From the IMG/VR virus record IMGVR_UViG_2563366852_000004, positions 1 through 37,397 of that record: DNA of 37,397 bases. One strand, 5' to 3'. This DNA is from a virus. Its lineage: Duplodnaviria > Heunggongvirae > Uroviricota > Caudoviricetes. Below, piece by piece: positions 1 to 31,037 of the stretch. The notes below the pieces were generated by a model. It was not told the DNA's origin and did no database searches. It saw nothing but the letters and a program-made list of their open reading frames with translations. Numbering within the stretch: the first letter of the stretch is position 1; each line of letters starts with the position of its first letter. Both the position numbers and the translations under genes were made by a program.

Positions 1-1110
1 TTAAAGACTTCTTCTTGTGCTTAATTTCAAGTTCATCTTTGCCCATGCATTTCTTATTATTTTATTTGCCGGCATCTCAATTAATTTAAATGATATAATA
101 GAGAAAAATATAGAAATACCCAGACAGCAAACTATATAAAATATAACATCACGTACATCATTTTTGTTTGGTTGCATTATTTCCATTAGCTTAGAAATTA
201 TGATCCAGTGGAACATGTAAAATGAGAAGGATGCCTCTCCTAATAGAATTAGATATCTGTTAGATAAAAATTTAGAAATCACCCCGCCATCAAATGCAAA
301 CGCTATTACTATCATAGCCATACATGGGATATAAAGAAGATCATATTTTATATTCATGTACGAAACATAATTTGTTGCTACATATACGGTAAACGCCAAA
401 AAAAACAGAGAGCCAATCTCCATGGCACTACATATCGCAGGTTTTATATTTACTTTTTTAGCAAGAAACACTCTACTGATTAATACACCAATAATAAAAT
501 CGCCAATCCTGAAAAATGGATTTATATAAAACAGCCAGTGTGATGAAATATTAACTGGTGGGTTCAATAAAAAAAATAAATTAACAATAACAATTACCAA
601 AAGAGTACTTGTTAGATATCGTGACTTAAACTTTACAAGAAGACAAAAAGATAAATAAAAAAACATCTCACACGAGATACTCCATGATACGGGGTTAAAA
701 GAAAAATAGTAATCTGAGATAGGGATAAATGATTGAACCAATAGCGCATTATATATTAATGACTCTTTATTTATAGCCTCAAAGTTTTTTGTATAGCCAA
801 ATATAAAAAGGACACATATCAATGATATAATATGAACAGGAAATAATCTCGCGAGTCTGTAAACTATGAAGTCCTTGTTGCTAAATTTACCTTCTTCCAT
901 ATGCTTACTAAAGCTGTAATTAATAATAAATCCGGAAAGAATATAGAAGAAAGTAACCCCTATATAACCATTAAAAAAGTATTTTGCCGCAACATTGAAC
1001 TGCGAGATCGAAGACTGAGACAAAATGCCTAGATGGCTAACAAATACACCAAGAGCCGCAAGCATTCGAAGTGATGTAAGGCTATGAATAATTTTGTTTT
1101 TCTGAGTCAT
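1..1110 (-). CDS. Acyltransferase family 3 integral membrane protein (O-antigen acetylase-like, probable lysogenic conversion gene)
   Basis: 369 aa ORF, ATG at 1108-1110, stop at 1-3. Multi-pass hydrophobic protein whose N-terminus (SLRMLAALGVFVSHLG) is typical of Acyl_transf_3 O-acetyltransferases. Visibly AT-rich; sits next to the tailspike at the prophage end, as oac does in Sf6-type phages. Confidence 0.75.
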   Translation of the reverse strand: MTQKNKIIHSLTSLRMLAALGVFVSHLGILSQSSISQFNVAAKYFFNGYIGVTFFYILSGFIINYSFSKHMEEGKFSNKDFIVYRLARLFPVHIISLICVLFIFGYTKNFEAINKESLIYNALLVQSFIPISDYYFSFNPVSWSISCEMFFYLSFCLLVKFKSRYLTSTLLVIVIVNLFFLLNPPVNISSHWLFYINPFFRIGDFIIGVLISRVFLAKKVNIKPAICSAMEIGSLFFLAFTVYVATNYVSYMNIKYDLLYIPCMAMIVIAFAFDGGVISKFLSNRYLILLGEASFSFYMFHWIIISKLMEIMQPNKNDVRDVIFYIVCCLGISIFFSIISFKLIEMPANKIIRNAWAKMNLKLSTRRSL

Positions 1111-5294: not shown

Positions 5295-6622
5295 TCCACC
5301 GTAAATTGAATGCCTGATTTTGAGGTATATGATCCGGATTGACTCTGCTGCTGTTGGGTATTTGTCGGTTGTTGGTTATTGCTCTGTTGTTGCGCAGGCT
5401 GCTGAATATCTTCATACAGCTTGGCTTTTCTGGATTGCAATTGCTTAGTTAGTCCGCTGGGGAGAGAATCTCCATAAGTTGAAAGATAATCATCCATTTG
5501 CTGGTTAAACTTTTCGCCTTCAGTATTTGCCATCAGTTTTGAGGTGTTGATTAAGTCCTGGACTTGCTCATTATTCAGCATCTTGCCGTTAGATAATTGG
5601 CTAACATAGTTACCAAGTGTGCCGAATATTCCATCAGTGCGTTTTACCTGCACTTGCTCACCTTCGCGTACCACAGATTGCGGATCCAGCGATTTCATAT
5701 AGTTGAAAATCATTCCCAACTGCGCGGCTGGAGTGTTGCGCTTCCCAAGGGCTTGTAGGTTGTCAGAAGCACTGCGCATTGCAGAATAATTCTTTGAGAA
5801 CCCATTAATATCACTATTCAGATCTCGAACAAGTTTTGGGTCAATCTTTCCGCTTTCCTGTTGTTTCATCCCTAATTCCTGCAACTTCAGGGCTACGTTA
5901 TCATTATGCATTTGTGCCCGCTGAGCCCTGTCTAGTTGAGCGTTTTGGATATTTGCCCATCCTCTCGCGTTCTCCATGTCAGCCTGACGGATGCTTTCAT
6001 CCAATCGCCCTTTCTCAAGTTGGCGACCAACCATCTTATCCTGATAATCCAGCATTTTATCCGGACCAACAGCCCCTAGCGTCATAGTAGTCAGCATGTG
6101 TGATAGCTGCTCTGGATTCTGGATACCTGTCTGAATCATCCAGTCAGCATTCGCACCCACGCGATTTAACCTGTCCTTGTTGTCAGTAATGAATTTACTG
6201 TAGGCTTCCGGTCCCTGAGAAAGAGCGACGTTAGCCCTCATGGCTAAATCGCCCATATCGTTGCGTTGCTGCTCATTAAGACCGGAAAACGCCTGTTGTG
6301 CCTGTGCAACAAACGCTGGATTTTCCTGGGCAAACTTAAATAGTCCCGATGGATCACCAGAAGCCCATGCATCAGCGTGAACCTTATTGAACGCACTAAT
6401 AGCTTTCTGTTGCTGTTCCTGCTTATAAATATCAGCAACTCCAGCCAGACCACGTAACGCGGTCAGACCAACGTTATTTGCGCCTGATCGAGCCAGTTCA
6501 TTGTTTTCGCGGATCAGACCAAGCGTTGCGTTAATGTCGCTTGCCTTTGGCGCATTCTCATTTTGCGCACCGATGCCAGCAAGAAACCCACCAGAATTAA
6601 TACCCTGTTGCCACGTAGCCAT
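5291..6622 (-). CDS. Ejection protein (P22 gp20-like)
   Basis: 443 aa, Gln/Asn-rich; between gp7-like and gp16-like genes; 4-nt overlap with downstream gene. Confidence 0.65.
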
Positions 6623-12986: not shown

Positions 12987-15185
12987 TTACTGCTGTGGTT
13001 GTTGCTGAGTTAATTTTTGCAGGATGCTGCTGATGTCCATGCGCTGCGCATGGCCCTGTGCCTGACTTTTCAGGACAAGCTCTGCATCAGCACGGGCATT
13101 ATCTCCTTGCTGTTGCTGGAACTGTCCGAGCAGTTTCAGCGCCTCACGGATATCAGATTTTTGCTGGCTATCGGCAGATGCGAGGATTTTCACAACATTT
13201 GCCGCAGCAACCTGAGCATCCGTCTGTGCCTGGAATGCTTTAACCTGAATGGCTGCCTGTTCGTTCTGCGCTTTCTGCAATTCAGCCTGACCAGCAAGAA
13301 GCTGACCTTGCGCAGCAACCATAGCCGGATCTGGCTGACTGGCCTGTTGTTGTTTCGCCTGCTCAACCATCTGCTGCTCTTCTGGCGTTCTCGGCTTGAT
13401 AACTCCAGACAGAAGCAACTGATTGCGGTTGTATTCTTTAAGGTCGTCCATCCCTTCGCCATCCATATTGTCGAGAATCATCGACGATACAAGGTCGTGC
13501 TTCGGCGTTCCTGGTGGGATAAGTGCCAGCATGGAAAGTAACGACTTAACCGTTGCATCACGGCGAGTAGCGAACGACTGACCGACATCGACAGTCACTT
13601 CATAGTTACCCTGCGAAAGGTCGTTAAGCGCGATAACCTGCCCTGTCTGACGGTCAACCACTTCACCAGTCATCAGCGCCACGTCATCGCTGCCGTCCTC
13701 ATTAACGATGCGCATTGGCGTATCGCTGCCATAGACTTCACGCGCCATAGAAAGCCACACAACGCCAGCGCGACGCATGGATTTAGCCATGTTGTCCATG
13801 TAGATATAGGACTGCGTATCCATCCGGTTAAAGATGCTATCAACGGTATCGGTGGCGACGTTGCTCGGCATGTTCTCAAGCTGCGACGCACCTGTAATTT
13901 GCTGAATAGCCGTTCCGGTGTACTGCAATAGCCCGGCAAGAGCTGGCGGCATTTGTGTCGGAGGTGTATAACTGCTGACCTGAGCCTGCGCAGTAATATC
14001 TCCGTTTTTGTTTTTCAGACTGACCATCGGCAGGAACGCCGGGCGCTTTTTGTTGCGCTCCGCCCAATGAGTGGCAAGAGGACCAGGAATCATGTCAACA
14101 TCAACTACAGGAATGCCATCACCGCCAGCCTGAGTAGCGTTATCTGCAATCATGGAAACCATCAGGTTCTCAAGACGCTGCGCATCCATCGCTTTTGCTG
14201 CGTGGCCTTCGATTCGCTCCTGATTATCAACAAATGAGCGACGCCCATATACCGGGATGAGAGGAATATGTTCGCCCGGAATACGCTTCGGTTCTTCCAG
14301 CCATTCAGCGCCAGACAGAAGACCGCAATAAACGCGGCGCTTCTTCACCGTTCGCTCGCCAATCAGTTCGAATGCACCATCGGTCAGCTCGTCGACAATA
14401 TCTTTGATTTGCTCTTCATCATAGATTGCCGTTTCTCCGCTGACAGGGTTACGCCATGCTGTGAGCTTCACCTTCTCTATGCGGACTTCGTAGTAACGTC
14501 CAACATAGATGGCATCTGGCGTTGACCAGTCATATTGAGTGCCAGTGTCATCACGAGAAAGGCTTGCCGCGATGGAATCAGGGTATTCAGCCTCGAACGC
14601 TTTAGGCGTCATGGAGAACATTTCCATAGCCCACATAGCATCAGAGCGGTCATATTGCTTGCTGTCCTGATCGAAGAAGACGCATGTCGCTGGGTCGTAA
14701 ACAGGAAGAAGGCTGATGCGTCGCTGCTCGTTACTCGGATCCATTTCATCTTCGTAATCAGCACACATGCGGAAACAACCGAATCCGCCCGTTACAGCAT
14801 CATCAAATGCGTTATCACACGCTTCGCCACCGGATGTTTCCTGATAATCAGCGCGGAATTTGCCGTTCATCTTTTCGGCTAACGCTTCCGATGCCTTGTC
14901 ATCCTTCGGCCTGAATTTAACGCTGATGCGATTCTGCCGATACTCGCCAATGATGCGATCACATTCACGGGCAATCTTATTTAGTTCAAAGCGCGGATAA
15001 TGCTCAAACCTGCCTTCATCAAATGAGTAACCAGCGTTTGTGCTGCCTTCCCACTGTGCGCCGGATACCCGGACGAAACGTTGAGCCTCAATAATCTGCT
15101 CACGCATATCCTGCGTTGCTGACCAGGCATTATCAAAGTTGCACAGCACCTTGCGATGCCAGTCAGTCATCTTTTTTTCTGCCAT
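12987..15185 (-). CDS. Portal protein (P22 gp1-like)
   Basis: 732 aa; motifs GEHIPLIPVYG, PRTPEEQQMVEQAKQQQASQPDPAMVAAQGQLLAGQAELQKAQN and ARADAELVLKS...RMDISSILQ match the P22 portal from memory, including the long C-terminal helical barrel region. Confidence 0.9.
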   Translation of the reverse strand: MAEKKMTDWHRKVLCNFDNAWSATQDMREQIIEAQRFVRVSGAQWEGSTNAGYSFDEGRFEHYPRFELNKIARECDRIIGEYRQNRISVKFRPKDDKASEALAEKMNGKFRADYQETSGGEACDNAFDDAVTGGFGCFRMCADYEDEMDPSNEQRRISLLPVYDPATCVFFDQDSKQYDRSDAMWAMEMFSMTPKAFEAEYPDSIAASLSRDDTGTQYDWSTPDAIYVGRYYEVRIEKVKLTAWRNPVSGETAIYDEEQIKDIVDELTDGAFELIGERTVKKRRVYCGLLSGAEWLEEPKRIPGEHIPLIPVYGRRSFVDNQERIEGHAAKAMDAQRLENLMVSMIADNATQAGGDGIPVVDVDMIPGPLATHWAERNKKRPAFLPMVSLKNKNGDITAQAQVSSYTPPTQMPPALAGLLQYTGTAIQQITGASQLENMPSNVATDTVDSIFNRMDTQSYIYMDNMAKSMRRAGVVWLSMAREVYGSDTPMRIVNEDGSDDVALMTGEVVDRQTGQVIALNDLSQGNYEVTVDVGQSFATRRDATVKSLLSMLALIPPGTPKHDLVSSMILDNMDGEGMDDLKEYNRNQLLLSGVIKPRTPEEQQMVEQAKQQQASQPDPAMVAAQGQLLAGQAELQKAQNEQAAIQVKAFQAQTDAQVAAANVVKILASADSQQKSDIREALKLLGQFQQQQGDNARADAELVLKSQAQGHAQRMDISSILQKLTQQQPQQ

Positions 15186-18935: not shown

Positions 18936-19403
18936 TCATCGAAGGCATTGCGTCCTGATGTATTCCTGAAGCGTTCTCAGTGCTGTTTGGTCGCGGATAA
19001 TTCCGTCCCGGATACCGAGAACGTTTCGTCCAGCAACTGGAGAGAGTTCGACGGTGGCATCATTGCCCATGCCGGAGGCGCTGGAGGTTTCGGCTGAGGA
19101 TGGCACAGGGCATTTTCCTTTGACGAACACCCGACCACCATTATCAAGCTTGCGCCGAAGAGCATCATTTTCAGCTTTCGCATCAGCTAACTCCTTCGTG
19201 TATTTAGCATCGAGTGCATCAGCAGAACGCTGGCGCTGCTGCATGTCAGTAATGGTGGCGGTCGCCTGCTTCAGCTCACTGACTTTTTTATCTCGCTGTT
19301 CTTTGTAGGCGATGGCGTTATCACGGTAATGATTAACAGCCCATGACAGGCAGACGATGATGCAGATAACCAGAGCGGAGATAATCGCGGTTACTCTGCT
19401 CAT
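18936..19403 (-). CDS. Rz: Spanin inner-membrane subunit Rz
   Basis: 155 aa; N-terminus [31 protein letters not shown] matches lambda Rz from memory; overlaps the endolysin stop. Confidence 0.85.
18977..19183 (-). CDS. Rz1: Spanin outer-membrane lipoprotein Rz1 (embedded in Rz, +1 frame)
   Basis: ORF wholly inside Rz in another frame; [19 protein letters not shown] carries a lipobox-like VVGC followed by a Pro-rich stretch, as in lambda Rz1. Exact start uncertain. Confidence 0.7.
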
Positions 19404-19876
19404 ACCTCAATCTCTCTGACCGTTCCGCCTGCTTCTTTGAATTTTACAATCAGGCTGTCAGCCTTATGCTCGAACTGACCATAACCAGCGCCCGGCAGTG
19501 AAGCCCAGATATTGCTGCAACGGTCGATAGCCTGACGAATATCACCGCGATCAATCATCGGTAAAGCGCCACGCTCTTTAATCTGCTGTAGTGCAACAGC
19601 GTCCTGGCTTTTCGGAGAGAAGTCTTTCAGCCCAAGCTGCTTACGGTATGCATCCCACCAACGGGAAAGAAGCTGGTAACGTCCTGCTGCTGTTGATTTG
19701 AGTTTTGGGTTTAGCGTGACAAGTTTGCGAGGGTGATCGGAGTAATCGGTAAATAGCTCTCCGCCTACAATGACGTCATAACCATGATTTCTGGTTTTCT
19801 GACGTCCGTTATCAGTTCCCTCTGACCACGCCAGCATATCGAGGAACGCCTTACGTTGATTATTGATTTCCACCAT
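19400..19876 (-). CDS. R: Endolysin (lambda R-type lytic transglycosylase)
   Basis: 158 aa; near-identical to lambda R from memory ([49 protein letters not shown]...). Confidence 0.9.
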
Positions 19877-20183
19877 CTTCTACTCCGGCTTTTTTAGCAG
19901 CGAAGCGTTTGATAAGCGAACCAATCGAGTCAGTACCGATGTAGCCGATGAACACGCTCGTTATATAAGCGAGATTGCTACTTAGTCCGGCGAAGTCGAG
20001 AAGGTCACGAATGAACCAGGCGATAATGGCGCACATCGTTGCGTCGATTACTGTTTTTGTAAACGCACCGCCATTATATCTGCCGCGAAGGTACGCCATT
20101 GCAAACGCAAGGATTGCCCCGATGCCTTGTTCCTTTGCCGCGAGAATGGCGGCTAACAGGTCATGTTTTTCTGGCATCTTCAT
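19860..20183 (-). CDS. S: Holin (lambda S-type, dual-start motif)
   Basis: 107 aa beginning [20 protein letters not shown]..., matching lambda S107/S105 with the Met1-Lys-Met3 dual start. Confidence 0.9.
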
Positions 20184-20302
20184 GTCTTACCCCCAATAAG
20201 GGGATTTGCTCTATTTAATTAGGAATAAGGTCGATTACTGATAGAACAAATCCAGGCTACTGTGTTTAGTAATCAGATTTGTTCGTGACCGATATGCACG
20301 GG

Positions 20303-20338
20303 CAAAACGGCAGGAGGTTGTTAGCGCAACCTCTTGCC
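20303..20338 (-). terminator. tR'-like intrinsic terminator upstream of the holin gene
   Basis: Minus strand GGCAAGAGGTTG-CGCTAA-CAACCTCCTGCC followed by GTTTTGCCC; matches the lambda tR' hairpin from memory with one stem change. Confidence 0.65.
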
Positions 20339-20477
20339 ACCCGCTTTCACGAAGCCAGCCATTGCGCTGGTTTTCTTTTATGCAAAGCACACCGCACCGT
20401 AGCCACAGCGGATAAGGTGATTATTTTTGTCTGTCTGGTATTTGGCTTGATGTGCTTTCAGAAAGGTCGTGATTAAA

Positions 20478-20510
20478 ACGCAAAAAGCCCGAGCTATTAA
20501 CTCAGGGCTT
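20478..20510 (-). terminator. Additional promoter-proximal hairpin terminator in the pR' leader
   Basis: Minus strand AAGCCCTGAG-TTAATAG-CTCGGGCTT followed by TTTGCGTTTT, about 30-60 nt downstream of the predicted pR' start. Confidence 0.45.
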
Positions 20511-20536
20511 TATTTAAAGAGTGCATTTATCCATCG

Positions 20537-20573
20537 TTAGGTCAAATTTACCCAACTTTATTCAAAAAGTCAA
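20537..20573 (-). promoter_or_regulatory. Late promoter pR' with overlapping qut region
   Basis: Minus strand TTGACTTTTTGAATAAAGTTGGGTAAATTTGACCTAACGATGG is nearly identical to the lambda pR' region as remembered (-35 TTGACT, -10 TAAATT), immediately downstream of Q. Confidence 0.65.
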
Positions 20574-20615
20574 TATTATGCCGTTAATATGTTGCCATCC
20601 GTGGCAATCATGCTG

Positions 20616-21239
20616 CTAACGTGTGACCGCATTCAAGATATTGTCTGCGATTGACTCTTCTTTGTGGCATTGCACCACCAGAGCGTCATACAGTGGCTTA
20701 ACAGTGCGTGACCAGGTGGGTTGAGTAAGGTTTGGGATTAGCATCGTTACAGCGCGATATGCAGCGCTTGCTGGCATTCTTGAATAGCCGACGCCTTTGC
20801 ATCTTCCGCACTCTTTCTCGACAACTCTCCCCCACTGCTCTGTTTTTGCTATATCAACCGCACGACCTGTACCGTGGCAATCTCTGCATCTTGCGCCCGG
20901 CGTCGCGGCACTACGGCAATAATCCGCATAAGCGAATGTTGCGAGCACTTGCAGCACCTTTGCCTTAGTATTTCCTTCGAGCTTTGCCACACCACGGTAT
21001 TTCCCCGATACCTTGTGTGCAAATTGCATCAGATAGTTGATAGCCTTTTGTTTGTCGTTCTGGCTGAGTTCGTGCTTACCACAGAATGCAGCCATTCCGA
21101 ATCCGGCTTGTGATTGCGCCATCCCCATAGCAGCCATCACATCAGTACCGGAAAGAGAGTCAGAAGCCGTGGCCCGTGCTGAGTCGCTCATCATTGGGCT
21201 TTTTGGCGAATGAAATTTAGCTACGCTTTCGAGTCTCAT
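20616..21239 (-). CDS. Q: Late antiterminator Q
   Basis: 207 aa, essentially identical to lambda Q from memory (MRLESVAKFHSPKSPMMSDS...). Confidence 0.9.
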   Translation of the reverse strand: MRLESVAKFHSPKSPMMSDSARATASDSLSGTDVMAAMGMAQSQAGFGMAAFCGKHELSQNDKQKAINYLMQFAHKVSGKYRGVAKLEGNTKAKVLQVLATFAYADYCRSAATPGARCRDCHGTGRAVDIAKTEQWGRVVEKECGRCKGVGYSRMPASAAYRAVTMLIPNLTQPTWSRTVKPLYDALVVQCHKEESIADNILNAVTR

Positions 21240-21424
21240 GGTCTTCCCCTCTTGCCCTGTTTGACCATCAGGACGCCGTTAACTATTACGTGACGCTCAC
21301 CTTTGCTGTCTCTGTTGTACTTGAGCACTGTTCCTCTTGCGCAGGAAAGCATCCTCGCCACTTCGGTCTGATTGCCTCGTGTCTGGATAAGAAGCTCCGG
21401 TATCGTTTGAATTGTGGCGTTCAT
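21236..21424 (-). CDS. ninH: NinH-like protein
   Basis: 62 aa; TIPELLIQTRGNQTEVARMLSCARGTVLKY resembles lambda NinH; lies immediately upstream of Q. Confidence 0.7.
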   Translation of the reverse strand: MNATIQTIPELLIQTRGNQTEVARMLSCARGTVLKYNRDSKGERHVIVNGVLMVKQGKRGRP

Positions 21425-21783
21425 ACGTTCTCCAGTTCGGTGATTTTTATTCCAAGCCTTCCGCCTGGTACTTTCACGCCACGAATTACGCGAATGTCAT
21501 CGAATTGCTCGTCGTCTTCCGCAAATCCGGCGTGGATAAGGGAGTCGAGTAAACCTTTCAGGATATTGTCGAGGTCGCGGCGGCGGGAGTCTGGAACGTC
21601 TGCGATGACTTTGATGCGGAGTCGTGATTTGGTGAAAATGTCTAACTTAAGTTGGCGGATGATTTGCTGAACGTCTTTTCGGTATTTCTGGCCTTTATCG
21701 CTGATGTAGTATTGGCTTCCCCGTCTTCGCCAGTAGGTGTTCAGCGACGGTGGGTACGGAAGTGTGAATCTGTATTCTGCCAT
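21421..21783 (-). CDS. rusA: Holliday junction resolvase RusA
   Basis: 120 aa; motifs LPYPPSLNTYWR and PDSRRRDLDNILKGLLDSL match RusA family. Confidence 0.85.
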   Translation of the reverse strand: MAEYRFTLPYPPSLNTYWRRRGSQYYISDKGQKYRKDVQQIIRQLKLDIFTKSRLRIKVIADVPDSRRRDLDNILKGLLDSLIHAGFAEDDEQFDDIRVIRGVKVPGGRLGIKITELENV

Positions 21784-22308
21784 TTATCCTCTCCCATGAT
21801 TATGGTGATACCCCAATCGTGATTCCGCCAATTTTCTGGCATTAACGGCTAGAGATATGTCATCGTATAATCCAAGAAATATCTTTTTATTATCACTGTT
21901 TATATATGCGCCCCACTTTTTATTCTTCTTATAGTAGGCAACCCCCATTACTCCAGAGCGATTATTAATAGGCTTTTTTCTGTTCCTTGAGTTCTGTTTA
22001 TCATCTACAACGCGCAAATTGCATATTCTGTTATCGCTTTTAACTCCATTTATGTGGTCAATTTCCCCATCAGGTTCACTTCCATAAAAGGATATCCATG
22101 CGATTCTATGAGCTCGACAAACTTTTTTATTTACAGATATACGAACGTATCCTTTTTCATCTATAGAACCAGCAATCTTACCGGCATATGTTGAATTCCA
22201 GCACTCTCTTACACTTTCTCTTCTCTTGTATATAAACAAACCTGTTTCGCTATTATATTCATACAATTCATTGATTTCTTTTTGTGTTGGATATCTTTTA
22301 CCGTTCAT
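21784..22308 (-). CDS. HNH homing endonuclease (HNH + AP2-like DNA-binding domain)
   Basis: 174 aa; CRAHRIAWISFYG...IDHINGVKSDNRICNLRVV (HNH core) followed by GVMGVAYYKKNKKWGAYI (AP2-like); clearly AT-rich relative to flanks. Confidence 0.75.
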   Translation of the reverse strand: MNGKRYPTQKEINELYEYNSETGLFIYKRRESVRECWNSTYAGKIAGSIDEKGYVRISVNKKVCRAHRIAWISFYGSEPDGEIDHINGVKSDNRICNLRVVDDKQNSRNRKKPINNRSGVMGVAYYKKNKKWGAYINSDNKKIFLGLYDDISLAVNARKLAESRLGYHHNHGRG

Positions 22309-22595
22309 GACTTAATCTTCCCCTCCTTCAGCAGTATCGCCTGCGTCCTGATCACGCCTTCGAGGTGGTAAAGTCTGGCGTCTTTGTTGTCGAGAATCCG
22401 GGTGCGTCGGTCGATCTCCGCGTGGCAGTCACTACAAGCCCATGCGCCGATCAGGTCGTCAGGCTTCATTCCCGTTCCGCAAATTCCAGTCATCCGGTAA
22501 TGTGCCAGAACTGTAGTTTCAGGGTTGCCATTGCATACGCCGTAAATACGTACCTGACATTCTCTTCCGCGCGCTTCTTTGCGTAGGTTAGCCAT
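22305..22595 (-). CDS. ybcO: YbcO-like protein (DUF1364, putative nuclease)
   Basis: 96 aa; RGRECQVRIYGVCNGNPETTVLAHYR...CSDCHAEIDRR resembles E. coli DLP12 YbcO from memory. Confidence 0.65.
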   Translation of the reverse strand: MANLRKEARGRECQVRIYGVCNGNPETTVLAHYRMTGICGTGMKPDDLIGAWACSDCHAEIDRRTRILDNKDARLYHLEGVIRTQAILLKEGKIKS

Positions 22596-23318
22596 TAAGC
22601 AGCCTCCCCTGTTACTTTCAGCATTCCGTTATCGAGCAGCTTTCTGGTCAGCCACTGTTGACCACGCCCGGTGATTTTTGTGGTGAACGATATCTGTATT
22701 CCGTGATTTGTGTTGACCGCTGTTTCTTTCACTGTGAAATAACCGCGATCCATATATTCCTGCATTGGCACATTTCGCCGGAAACCTGAAGCAATAAGGA
22801 TTTTGTGATCACGCATCCACGCAAACAGTTTGTTCGGACCAATACCGACAACCTTTGCAAAGTTTCCAATCAAAATTCCGCTGGCCTCGCCAACGCGATC
22901 GGCAAACTCAACTTTAGGTGCGGCAATTGCGAGCTGGTTTTCCAGTTGCATTTTCTGCTCAGCAAGATCAGCAGCAAGGCGCAACGCTTCTGGTAGCGTT
23001 TTGGGGATATTAACCGCAGCTTCTTCAAGCTCTCGCCAACGGTCAACAAGACGAGCGGTGAATTCCGGCGACAACTGAGCGACGACAATAATGCTGTCTC
23101 GCTTACCTTGTTCGCCCTCAAAAACGTAAGCCTCTACGCCACGAAGTAATCCTAAGTTATTGATTTTTTTCGAAAACCACCATTGGGGGATTTCGGATCA
23201 CACCTCGAGCCGCCAGTCGTTCAATAGATTGTTTCACCTTGTCATGACGACTTCCCACCAACTCAGCGATTTCAATGCTTGTCATTTTGATGGCATTGCC
23301 ATTCATTAACTCACTCAT
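22595..23318 (-). pseudogene. Antirepressor (Rha-like N-terminus + KilA-C/ANT C-terminus) split by a frameshift in a homopolymer tract
   Basis: Manual translation gives a 53 aa N-terminal fragment (ATG 23316-23318 with GAGGA RBS; MSELMNGNAIKMTSIEIAELVGSRHDKVKQSIERLAARGVIRNPPMVVFEKNQ*) ending at TAA 23157-23159. The C-terminal KilA-C-like part (ORF 22595..23074) is open upstream in the +1 frame. The two frames join across a T7 run (plus strand 23164-23170); one fewer base would give a continuous protein of about 240 aa. Confidence 0.6.
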
Positions 23319-23487
23319 CGTCTTCTTCCTCGTACATTGAGCTATTCGGATCGCTCATCAGTTCTGCACAGCAGTGCTCACACACGTGAACTTCCAGCAC
23401 ATGCAGCTTCTGACCGCAGTTAGCGCACGTTAAAGCCCGCTCGACGCTTTCTTTCTGGTATTGAATGGATTGGGATGGGCTAAGCAT
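23311..23487 (-). CDS. ninF: NinF
   Basis: Manual translation: [58 protein letters not shown] (58 aa), matching lambda NinF from memory. Below the ORF-track size cutoff. Confidence 0.75.
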   Translation of the reverse strand: MLSPSQSIQYQKESVERALTCANCGQKLHVLEVHVCEHCCAELMSDPNSSMYEEEDDE

Positions 23488-23833
23488 TATTGGCGTCCTG
23501 CATCATGAGAAATACAATCATGGCGGCGCGGAGTGGGTTGTTGTCTATGGTAATAAATTCACAAAATCTATCCGCCTCCCACCAATATTCATTCTTCATT
23601 CCAGGATTATTTCTTTCGTATGCACATATGCTGATCTGATGTTTTGCAATTACAGGCCATGCATCTGCTGGGTTATTGCAGTAGTCGTACCATCGATAAT
23701 TACCATTTACTTCATTGCCAACAGACCGTCCATCTGCGTTGTGCGGATAACCTAATGGTTTTGCCCCAACTATCGCTTTAAATACTCGCTTGTTAATTTC
23801 AAAATCACTTAACTGTGAATAATCCATTGTCAT
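23480..23833 (-). CDS. Hypothetical nin-region protein
   Basis: ORF-track entry 23480..23869 trimmed to the internal ATG ([15 protein letters not shown]...) whose start overlaps the upstream stop in an ATGA arrangement; about 117 aa. Confidence 0.55.
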
Positions 23834-24006
23834 TTCCTCGCACGATATCTTAGCCACCGGATATCCCACAGGTGAGCTGTGTAATTGAAGGTTTTTACGT
23901 CAGATTCTTTTGGGATTGGCTTGCGTTTATTTCTGGAGCGTTTCGTTGGAAGGTATTTGCAGTTTTCGCAGATGATGTCGGTGAAACTTCGTCGCTGTCG
24001 CCTCAT
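23830..24006 (-). CDS. ninE: NinE-like protein
   Basis: Internal ATG at 24004-24006 overlaps the methylase stop (ATGA). The 58 aa product [58 protein letters not shown] resembles lambda NinE from memory. Confidence 0.65.
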
Positions 24007-24529
24007 GCCGCCCTCCTGACGCCCTGCCCGATCGCCATCAATGCCGCTTTGGATACGGTAGTAAACATCCGTCGAGGACTGATGAACGGTCGCCAAATCA
24101 GCAGCATGGAGCCTTTGCTGTTTCCCTTCTTCTCCAGCCCTGTCGATGGTTCGATAAAATTAATCCGTCCATCAGTGATAATGCGAACTTCGTCGACACT
24201 CTCCAGAGCCTTGCTGAACCATCCGACTGACATATCCTCTGGCACAAGCATAACTACCGTCTGTCGCTGTTGTATGCACTGCTCAGCGGCTTTTTCCACC
24301 CACGGCCTGATATTGCTGTACGGTGGGTTATTCCAGATTGCCCGTGGCTTATCCACTCAGAATTTAGCGCGTCGTCGGCCTCAGTTAGCCAGTGAGCACA
24401 CAGAGCATTTTTGTCGCTCGCTGCCGAATCCAGCCAGAATCCAAACTCAATATCCAGTGCATCAAAAAGCCAAAGCGGCGTTTGCCAGCAGTCCTTGTCG
24501 TGTGCTGGCGTATTTGATTTGATAGTCAT
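24003..24529 (-). pseudogene. Phage Dam-like DNA N6-adenine methyltransferase, frameshifted
   Basis: N-terminal part (MTIKSNTPAHDKDCWQTPLWLFDALDIEFGF...ADDALNSEW, frame of ORF 24254..24589) and C-terminal part containing the catalytic NPPY motif (DKPRAIWNNPPYSN..., ORF 24003..24356) lie in different frames. Minus-strand GAGTGGATAAGCC would read E-W-D-K if it were GAGTGGGATAAGCC, i.e. a single G missing from a G run near 24353-24357. Confidence 0.6.
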
Positions 24530-30939: not shown

Positions 30940-31037
30940 ATGACTACGACTATTGATAAGAATCAATGGAGTGGACAATACGAACGACGGCAATGATTGC
31001 CAGAGAACTTGGTAAACAGAACAACAAAGCTGCCTGA
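30940..31037 (+). pseudogene. ral: ral (restriction alleviation) remnant with internal deletion and frameshift
   Basis: ATG at 30940 reads MTTTIDKNQWSGQYERRQ*, matching the lambda Ral N-terminus as remembered (MTTTIDKNQWCGQ...). A different frame reads ...IRTTAMIARELGKQNNKAA* (stop 31035-31037), matching the Ral C-terminus. The two are separated by only a few bases instead of the ~40 codons of intact Ral. Confidence 0.5.

Follow-up and report, generated by a model that had tools for sequence, protein, structure and literature searches.

The roi gene between ninF and ybcO

The gene roi lies on the minus strand at 22595..23318 of the window, by which we mean the whole stretch of 37,397 nt that was analyzed. 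The window is a P22-like prophage (CUS-3/HK620/Kapi1-type) with the gene order O-antigen-type acyltransferase, tailspike, head, lysis, Q, nin, replication, immunity, and integrase. Upstream of roi, ninF (23487..23311; NinF, PF05810) overlaps the roi start by 8 nt. Downstream, ybcO (22595..22305; YbcO, PF07102) starts within the roi stop codon (TAATG) and is preceded by its own Shine-Dalgarno sequence, GGGGAGG. An 801-nt segment covering roi matched 1,467 of 5,426 complete E. coli genomes as well as 321 phage records. The matching genes are annotated as Roi, 'DNA-binding protein Roi', 'anti-repressor', or 'phage antirepressor KilAC domain-containing protein', the last being the RefSeq name of the product, and they are neighbored by NinF and by DUF1364/YbcO or NinG. 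The position between ninF and ybcO/ninG is common to HK022, CUS-3, and E. coli prophages, and we identify the gene at 23318..22595 as the roi gene of the lambdoid nin region (compare HK022 Roi). The term 'antirepressor', when applied to Roi, appears to be a label derived from its domains.

The roi copy of the window is a frameshifted pseudogene of 724 nt, whereas the intact gene comprises 723 nt and encodes 240 amino acids. The plus strand reads TTTTTTT at positions 23164-23170, corresponding to a run of seven adenines (A7) on the coding strand, and this run is one of eight homopolymers of at least 7 nt across the window; another A7 run lies at 15172-15178 in the portal gene. The wild-type run has six adenines (A6) and is read GAA AAA ATC (E-K-I). 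The extra adenine at 23164..23170 shifts the frame at codon 52, and translation ends two codons past the tract. The resulting N-terminal open reading frame (23157..23318, minus strand, including the stop codon) encodes a 53-aa stub, MSELMNG...NPPMVVFEKNQ, which contains a helix-turn-helix (HTH) and represents the first half of a Rha-like domain. It is deposited as GenBank EOW64087.1, 'hypothetical protein A31E_02023 [Escherichia sp. KTE159]'. The remainder of roi (22595..23163, minus strand) continues in the +1 frame through codons 52-240 and the stop codon. It has no internal stop and stays open via INNLGLLRGVEAYVFEGEQ and INNLGLLRGVEAYVFEGEQGKRDS to the stop at 22595, and it contains the rest of the Rha-like domain together with the entire KilAC/ANT domain. 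Its only in-frame start codons are a TTG at 23074 (159 aa) and an ATG at approximately codon 123 (118 aa).

The lesion is a single-base indel, and a compensating indel is absent. The window therefore holds no single open reading frame of about 240 codons, as translation of roi stops after 53 amino acids. A reading of the letters alone, referred to here as the sequence-only reading, had proposed that one antirepressor-type gene is split by a frameshift within this homopolymer and that removal of one base restores a protein of about 240 amino acids. Both proposals are correct: the T7 run joins two adjacent minus-strand frames, and deletion of one A yields a continuous protein of 240 amino acids, whose exact sequence exists elsewhere.

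A Pfam search with the repaired protein revealed the ANT/KilAC domain (PF03374) at residues 126-228 with 110.2 bits, far above the cut-off of 25.3. The Phage_pRha domain (PF09669) aligned with residues 12-99 at 27.8 bits (E = 3.8e-6), just under its cut-off of 29.9, although the alignment takes in model positions 1-91 of 91. Because codon 52 falls inside residues 12-99, the frameshift halves the N-terminal DNA-binding domain. The sequence-only reading had described a Rha-like fragment followed by a KilA-C open reading frame. It was right that these are two frames of one gene, but the break does not run between the domains. Homologues of roi are single genes of 240-242 aa, and the diverged ones are all fused. 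Together with the position of the break within the Rha-like domain, this leads us to reject two normally separate genes as an explanation. A solved structure related to Roi by sequence was not found.

Among characterized relatives, HK022 Roi binds DNA and is linked to the dependence of lytic growth on IHF, according to two citing articles (PMC3430580, PMC4587872) and the title of Clerget & Boccard (1996, J Bacteriol 178:4077). HK022 and the window share the locus order (ninF / roi / ybcO/hkbD / rusA / ninH / Q), the length class (240 aa in the window and 241 aa in HK022), the Rha-like plus KilAC architecture, and a nearly identical sequence from approximately codon 65 on. They differ in that the window copy is frameshifted and in that its N-terminal ~60 residues represent another mosaic allele, which is the sole carrier of A6; HK022 has ACATAA. 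Judging by the titles of Henthorn & Friedman (1995, cited in PMC8951638) and of the HK022 paper, the Rha proteins of phi80 and P22 share a phenotype class with Roi, namely inhibition of phage growth in IHF mutants. The window Roi resembles these proteins and the Phage_pRha and ANT families in the end-to-end Phage_pRha alignment of its N-terminus and the strong ANT/KilAC match of its C-terminus, and it differs from the Phage_pRha family in scoring below the Pfam cut-off. In natural Stx2a phages, roi is interrupted by IS629 (PMC4587872), and null alleles of roi are therefore tolerated.

Tract length among roi alleles

Among complete E. coli genomes, strain Z1323HEC0300 has the closest intact homologue, which is 98.6% identical and carries A6 at the same site. 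The two sequences align base for base with a single gap, which lies in the A run, and the best full-length E. coli matches span 800 nt of the 801-nt query. A 66-nt probe centered on the tract retrieved 171 records in 170 complete E. coli genomes. One record, from strain TB354, was 100% identical and thus has A7; the other 170 were 95-99% identical, and in all of those among the matches listed the aligned segment measured 65 nt, as expected for A6. The 46 phage records that carry this N-terminal allele likewise span 65 nt without exception; they include VT2-Sakai, Stx2 II, HK629, and many Stx1a phages. Judged from these alignments, A6 is the norm for this roi allele, and the earlier assumption that A6 is the in-frame state was confirmed by the homologue, the probe, and the phage records alike. 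More distant roi genes lack the run: CUS-3 has GAAAGAATC at this site (GAA AGA ATC) and HK022 has ACATAATC (AAC ATA ATC). The A run is confined to one N-terminal allele family, and a tract conserved by selection across diverged orthologues was not observed.

The A7 form is a heritable allele. Over 12,162 nt, the window and KE137292.1, a scaffold of Escherichia sp. KTE159 (GCA_000408805.1), are 100% identical. The exact 53-aa stub was found on approximately 12 contigs, which come from the NCBI assembly of KTE159 and from assemblies of at least seven separate, unrelated Logan/ENA runs (ERR434942, SRR23081275, ERR12541487, SRR22019965, SRR31617816, ERR12355608, and SRR28382059). Most of these contigs match the window at 100% identity for 2-10 kb. 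Two loci, L006 and L007, carry an immunity/replication module other than that of the window and are identical to it from position 24227 down to 19369, A7 included.

The repaired 240-aa protein (P0017) exists exactly and was found on six contigs. All eight A6 loci encoding it show no nucleotide difference from the window roi outside the tract. One locus, L034 (GCA_048022165.1), carries the window haplotype over 7,493 nt with two SNPs in addition to the tract difference. Judging by this near-identity, the insertion in the window roi is recent.

The same lesion recurs in other alleles. The retrieved loci comprise 13 distinct full-length A7 roi alleles and one partial allele. Twelve of the 13 are 1-64 nt apart, and the thirteenth, L025, is garbled in its 3' half. 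The A7 alleles occur in many mosaic backgrounds, with three types of Q, with NinG or YbcO, and with or without Dam and HNH genes. The frame behind the frameshift is fully open in every A7 allele except L025, which is expected for young lesions and also fits a retained function. Eight of nine distinct repaired proteins, counting the window's own type, were also found as exact A6 proteins. The other seven are present on 374, 219, 50, 50, 40, 509, and 2 contigs, respectively, and are commoner than their A7 forms. At the nucleotide level, A7 allele L023 is identical to A6 alleles L044, L047, and L049, and A7 allele L026 is identical to A6 alleles L045 and L046.

Besides the stub of the window, three further stubs terminate with ...FEKNQ. 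The MSELINGN type occurs on 34 contigs (77 index blocks), the MNELINGN type on 12 to 19 contigs, and the MNELINSN...AVRG type, which is that of TB354, on 18 contigs (25 blocks). The roi gene of TB354, annotated by PGAP as a 'frameshifted' pseudogene, shares gene, tract, and +1A lesion with the window. It differs from the window allele by 60 nt and resides in another phage background, with NinG and P22AR as neighbors, and it thus represents an independent or a recombinant occurrence. Other tract lengths exist as well. Stubs ending in ...FEKSIT, diagnostic of A5, were found on 1 and 4 contigs, and stubs ending in ...FEKKSIT, diagnostic of A8, on 3, 3, and 1 contigs. One haplotype occurs in three tract states, namely A6 in L033, A7 in L006, and A8 in L037. 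L006 differs from L033 by three SNPs and one copy of an 11-bp repeat over 8.8 kb, and L037 differs from L006 by two mismatches over 9,951 nt.

Polymorphisms flank the tract at position 110 (40 nt upstream) and position 220 (70 nt downstream), and every combination of them with A6 and A7 is present. Repeated mutation is therefore the more parsimonious explanation of these sequences, compared with a single origin of A7 that was then spread by recombination. The share of A7 is high in two haplotype groups, with approximately 12 index blocks for the window type versus approximately 12 for its A6 twin and 77 blocks for the MSELINGN type versus 110 for A6. Clonal sampling might account for this, as might tolerance or selection. 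Alleles with +1 far outnumber those with -1 (approximately 133 blocks versus 5 contigs), an excess that clonal sampling could explain, too.

Indel rates in E. coli grow exponentially with homopolymer length (PMC8510543), and the A6 run is the longest homopolymer in roi. With natural lengths from A5 to A8, the run is a recurrent indel hotspot of one roi allele family. Because indel rates climb steeply with run length, the hotspot would be an ordinary mutational one, so that the same lesion can be repeated in different E. coli prophages and can proceed to A8. The neighboring HNH gene has two A6 runs, at 21974-21979 and 22123-22128, and its intact protein is represented by 734 blocks.

Inactivation, switching, and other readings of the A7 tract

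The sequence-only reading had offered an inactivating mutation, a slippage-prone on/off switch, and a sequencing error as explanations. The first fits best, given that A7 is heritable and that its A6 twins are identical outside the tract. With a probability of roughly 0.8, we take the A7 form of roi to be a genuine, heritable +1A slippage mutation that inactivates an accessory gene, and to be ordinary in nature rather than a designed switch. A frameshift pseudogene at a prophage homopolymer is an already known kind of feature.

The best surviving alternative, which we nevertheless consider unlikely, is that the tract has been selected as a reversible toggle of Roi, a regulator associated with lytic growth that depends on IHF. 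The A6 run would then be a contingency tract, Roi would be repeatedly lost and regainable by slippage among A6, A7, and A8, and the recurrent A7 state would be adaptive. Several observations are in line with this idea. Tract length varies among close relatives, with natural lengths from A5 to A8 including the series on one haplotype, and A7 has arisen repeatedly on many alleles. Because the C-terminal frame stays intact, reversion would restore a functional Roi. Phase variation is also known from genes of P22-like prophages, for example neuO of CUS-3, which according to its record annotation contains heptanucleotide repeats. Like neuO and the homopolymer contingency genes, roi contains a coding simple repeat that is variable in length in nature and sets the reading frame. 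The resemblance ends there, as the repeat units of neuO are 7 nt long, and the roi run has only 6-8 nt, is not conserved across alleles, and is rarely in the off state. Homopolymer switches are typically at least 8 nt long and are best known in species with weak repeat repair; a run of A6-A7 is short by comparison. Moreover, the tract is limited to one allele family and is missing from the roi genes of CUS-3 and HK022. The off state was seen in 1 of 171 complete-genome records, the others being A6 among the matches listed, and in none of the 46 phage records. No sample among those listed contained both states. Finally, neutral slippage at the longest run of a dispensable gene predicts all of these observations equally well. 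What stands of the proposed on/off switch is that the tract is slippage-prone in the mutational sense, with A5, A6, A7, and A8 in nature, while evidence for a selected switch is absent.

A further point in favor of a switch is that the tract adjoins a conserved match to the IHF consensus. The sequence AATCAATAACTTA at 23153..23165 on the minus strand matches the consensus WATCAANNNNTTR and directly borders the A run. Its core is kept in the roi genes of HK022 and CUS-3 despite diverged flanks, and the conserved motif beside the tract reads AATCAAT(A/G)A(C/T)TTAGG. Chance alone would give 2.3 matches to this consensus in the window, where two were found, and the peptide motif INNLG/INDLG may be enough to explain the conservation. 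We regard the match as a candidate site and as a lead only.

Very unlikely is the view that the A7 form is a functional split gene, consisting of the 53-aa HTH stub and a KilAC protein that starts internally at the TTG (159 aa) or the ATG (118 aa). Both open reading frames are predicted by gene callers, and the KilAC domain (126-228) lies entirely within the downstream one. Furthermore, KilAC and Rha domains are variously combined in phage proteins; Iyer, Koonin, and Aravind reportedly described many different combinations in 2002. However, the break cuts through the Rha-like domain (12-99) and leaves the stub without the remainder of its fold, the TTG start lacks a recognizable Shine-Dalgarno sequence, and the diverged homologues are without exception single fused genes. 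The A7 alleles are moreover identical to fused A6 alleles at the nucleotide level and thus show no adaptation to a split state.

Even less credence can be given to an effective or programmed recoding, in which full-length Roi would be produced from A7 by +1 ribosomal frameshifting on AAA-A or by slippage of RNA polymerase. The wild-type sequence ...FEK-INNLG... would be restored exactly if tRNA-Lys slipped by +1 on GAA AAA A/AU C or if a transcript had A6, and trace leakiness is therefore conceivable. The 104 nt downstream of the tract fold slightly better than shuffled sequences, with a marginal z of -2.07. A shift of +1 is needed, yet the A-site codon is AAU, which is neither a stop nor a rare codon, and the stop codon of the zero frame follows two codons later. 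The sole element resembling a Shine-Dalgarno sequence, GGUGG, lies approximately 9-10 nt upstream of the tract. This spacing favors -1 frameshifting, and the -1 frame ends at once (...KKSIT, followed by a stop). For slippage during transcription, the run of only 7 nt is short: E. coli RNA polymerase bypasses indels only on runs of 7 or more thymidines or on still longer adenine runs (PMC6260861), and runs prone to slippage typically show signs of counter-selection at a length of nine nucleotides (PMC1088944). An Rfam search for a recoding signal at the tract gave no match, and a slippery site with matching stimulators was not found. Nearly all homologues are in frame, and the split arrangement is thus not conserved.

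The recurrence of one and the same allele in many independent assemblies effectively excludes that A7 is a homopolymer error of sequencing or assembly and that the true genome has A6 with an intact roi. It is true that the lesion sits inside a homopolymer, a classic site of error, and that complete RefSeq E. coli genomes contain no identical copy of the window (best match 98.6%). An exact-pattern scan with the 41-nt A7 context also gave no match in GTDB species representatives and IMG/VR contigs, two collections that are too sparse to inform on this point. However, the identical allele is present in the KTE159 assembly and on about 11 contigs from unrelated runs, several of them identical over kilobases, A7 occurs in 12 further roi alleles, and the same pipelines yield A6 for most genomes.

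Consequences for the prophage and for roi

We next consider what the inactivating mutation, our preferred reading, would mean for the prophage. Replication slippage in the A6 run of the prophage roi would have inserted one A, so that the frame changes at codon 52, midway through the DNA-binding domain, and translation ends after 53 amino acids. Full-length Roi would not be expected beyond trace read-through, and A7 would represent a loss-of-function allele of an accessory nin-region gene whose product is predicted to have Rha-like winged-HTH and KilAC domains. Loss of roi from a resident prophage is likely to be neutral or mildly beneficial. Polarity on downstream genes would be slight. Because ybcO has its own Shine-Dalgarno sequence, little effect is expected downstream of roi, and N-antiterminated transcription presumably resists Rho-dependent polarity.

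A scan for frame changes relative to related phages identified two further breaks in the prophage, located in dam and ral. The dam gene (24529..24003, minus strand) has a 1-nt deletion, in which a T was lost at approximately 24341 (GGTGC to GGGC). This lesion lies just before the NPPY motif and outside any homopolymer, and dam is intact in L006 and L001. In ral (start at 30940), about 103 nt are missing internally, between TGGACAAT and TGGGCAAT, and only an 18-aa stub is left. The scan detected no frame break in structural, lysis, replication, or integration genes. When 12 neighboring nin and lysis genes were compared across 37 loci, extra lesions were present in 2 of 16 A7/A8 loci versus 1 of 21 A6 loci, which is no clear enrichment. 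The roi lesion is thus usually isolated and not part of a wholesale decay, and we reject general prophage decay as the sole explanation.

For annotation, the locus should be described as one frameshifted roi pseudogene instead of two hypothetical genes. A7 roi can be trusted as a real allele of the Escherichia sp. KTE159 prophage and is not an assembly artefact. If, as appears improbable, the tract did serve as a contingency tract, loss of Roi would be favored in some hosts, for example, if it relieved the IHF dependence of lytic growth or stabilized lysogeny. Switching at useful rates would then amount to simple phase variation in a regulatory gene of a temperate phage, which no finding requires. 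The repeated inactivation of roi in prophages that otherwise look intact fits a gene that is dispensable or mildly costly in lysogens.

Tract length on one haplotype and exchange of the nin/lysis block

We found the A tract of roi, the minus-strand nin-region gene that is frameshifted in the window, in three lengths on a single prophage haplotype. The related prophage loci L033, L006, and L037, which come from three samples and carry immunity of the P22-Cro type, possess A6, A7, and A8, respectively, at locus positions ~6137-6150. Apart from the roi tract, this haplotype showed only 2-5 SNPs over 9-10 kb. L033 (~2220) and L006 (2210-2220) also differ in the O-like replication gene, where an 11-bp direct repeat, TTGTCCAACGG, has one copy more in one locus than in the other; this is probably iteron copy-number variation.

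A 4.9-kb block of the window (19369-24227), comprising the 3' part of dam, ninE/X/F, roi, ybcO, HNH, rusA, ninH, Q, holin, and lysozyme, is 100% identical to L006 and the related locus L007, and the cro, cII, and replication modules of these two loci differ from those of the window prophage. The shared block represents a clean case of modular exchange, in which the A7 roi allele was carried along.

Directly 3' of the roi A tract, the sequence AATCAATAACTTA (window 23153-23165, minus strand) matches the IHF consensus WATCAANNNNTTR. Its core, AATCAAT.A.TTAGG, is kept in the roi genes of phages HK022 and CUS-3, and the flanks are divergent. The window contains two matches to this consensus, with 2.3 expected; taken alone, the match is without statistical meaning.

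Lesions in dam, ral, and related prophages

The gene dam (24003-24529, minus strand), encoding a phage N6-adenine methyltransferase, is split in the window. The lesion (~24341) is a 1-nt deletion, GGTGC to GGGC, at a site that is not a homopolymer and just ahead of the NPPY motif; the N-terminal fragment ends with a stop at 24254. In L006 and L001, dam is intact and encodes 175 aa; L004 and L005 share the break seen in the window.

The restriction alleviation gene ral (30940-31000, plus strand) lacks ~103 nt internally (junction ~30969). The deletion is flanked by the short repeats TGGACAAT and TGGGCAAT and leaves an 18-aa stub, MTTTIDKNQWSGQYERRQ*. In CUS-3 and E. coli E21845/O/A, ral is intact.

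In related prophages, breaks confined to a single gene were also observed, in rusA of an A7 roi locus (L019, 4011-4369) and in ninE of an A6 roi locus (L049, 1766-1938). The 3' half of roi in a further A7 locus (GCA_048156485.1) is garbled from ~2200, which looks like poor assembly.

Homopolymers in other window genes

The essential portal gene (minus strand) opens with an in-frame A7 run in codons 3-5 (ATG GCA GAA AAA AAG; 15172-15178), which offers a handy control within the window for slippage or read errors at homopolymers. The Acyl_transf_3 gene (1-1110, minus strand), which is of the O-antigen-modification type and adjoins the tailspike gene, carries T8, T8, and T7 runs on its coding strand (plus 398-405, 569-576, and 657-663). 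These runs exceed the roi tract in length and are all in frame in the window; they are plausible sites at which a serotype-converting gene could undergo phase variation.
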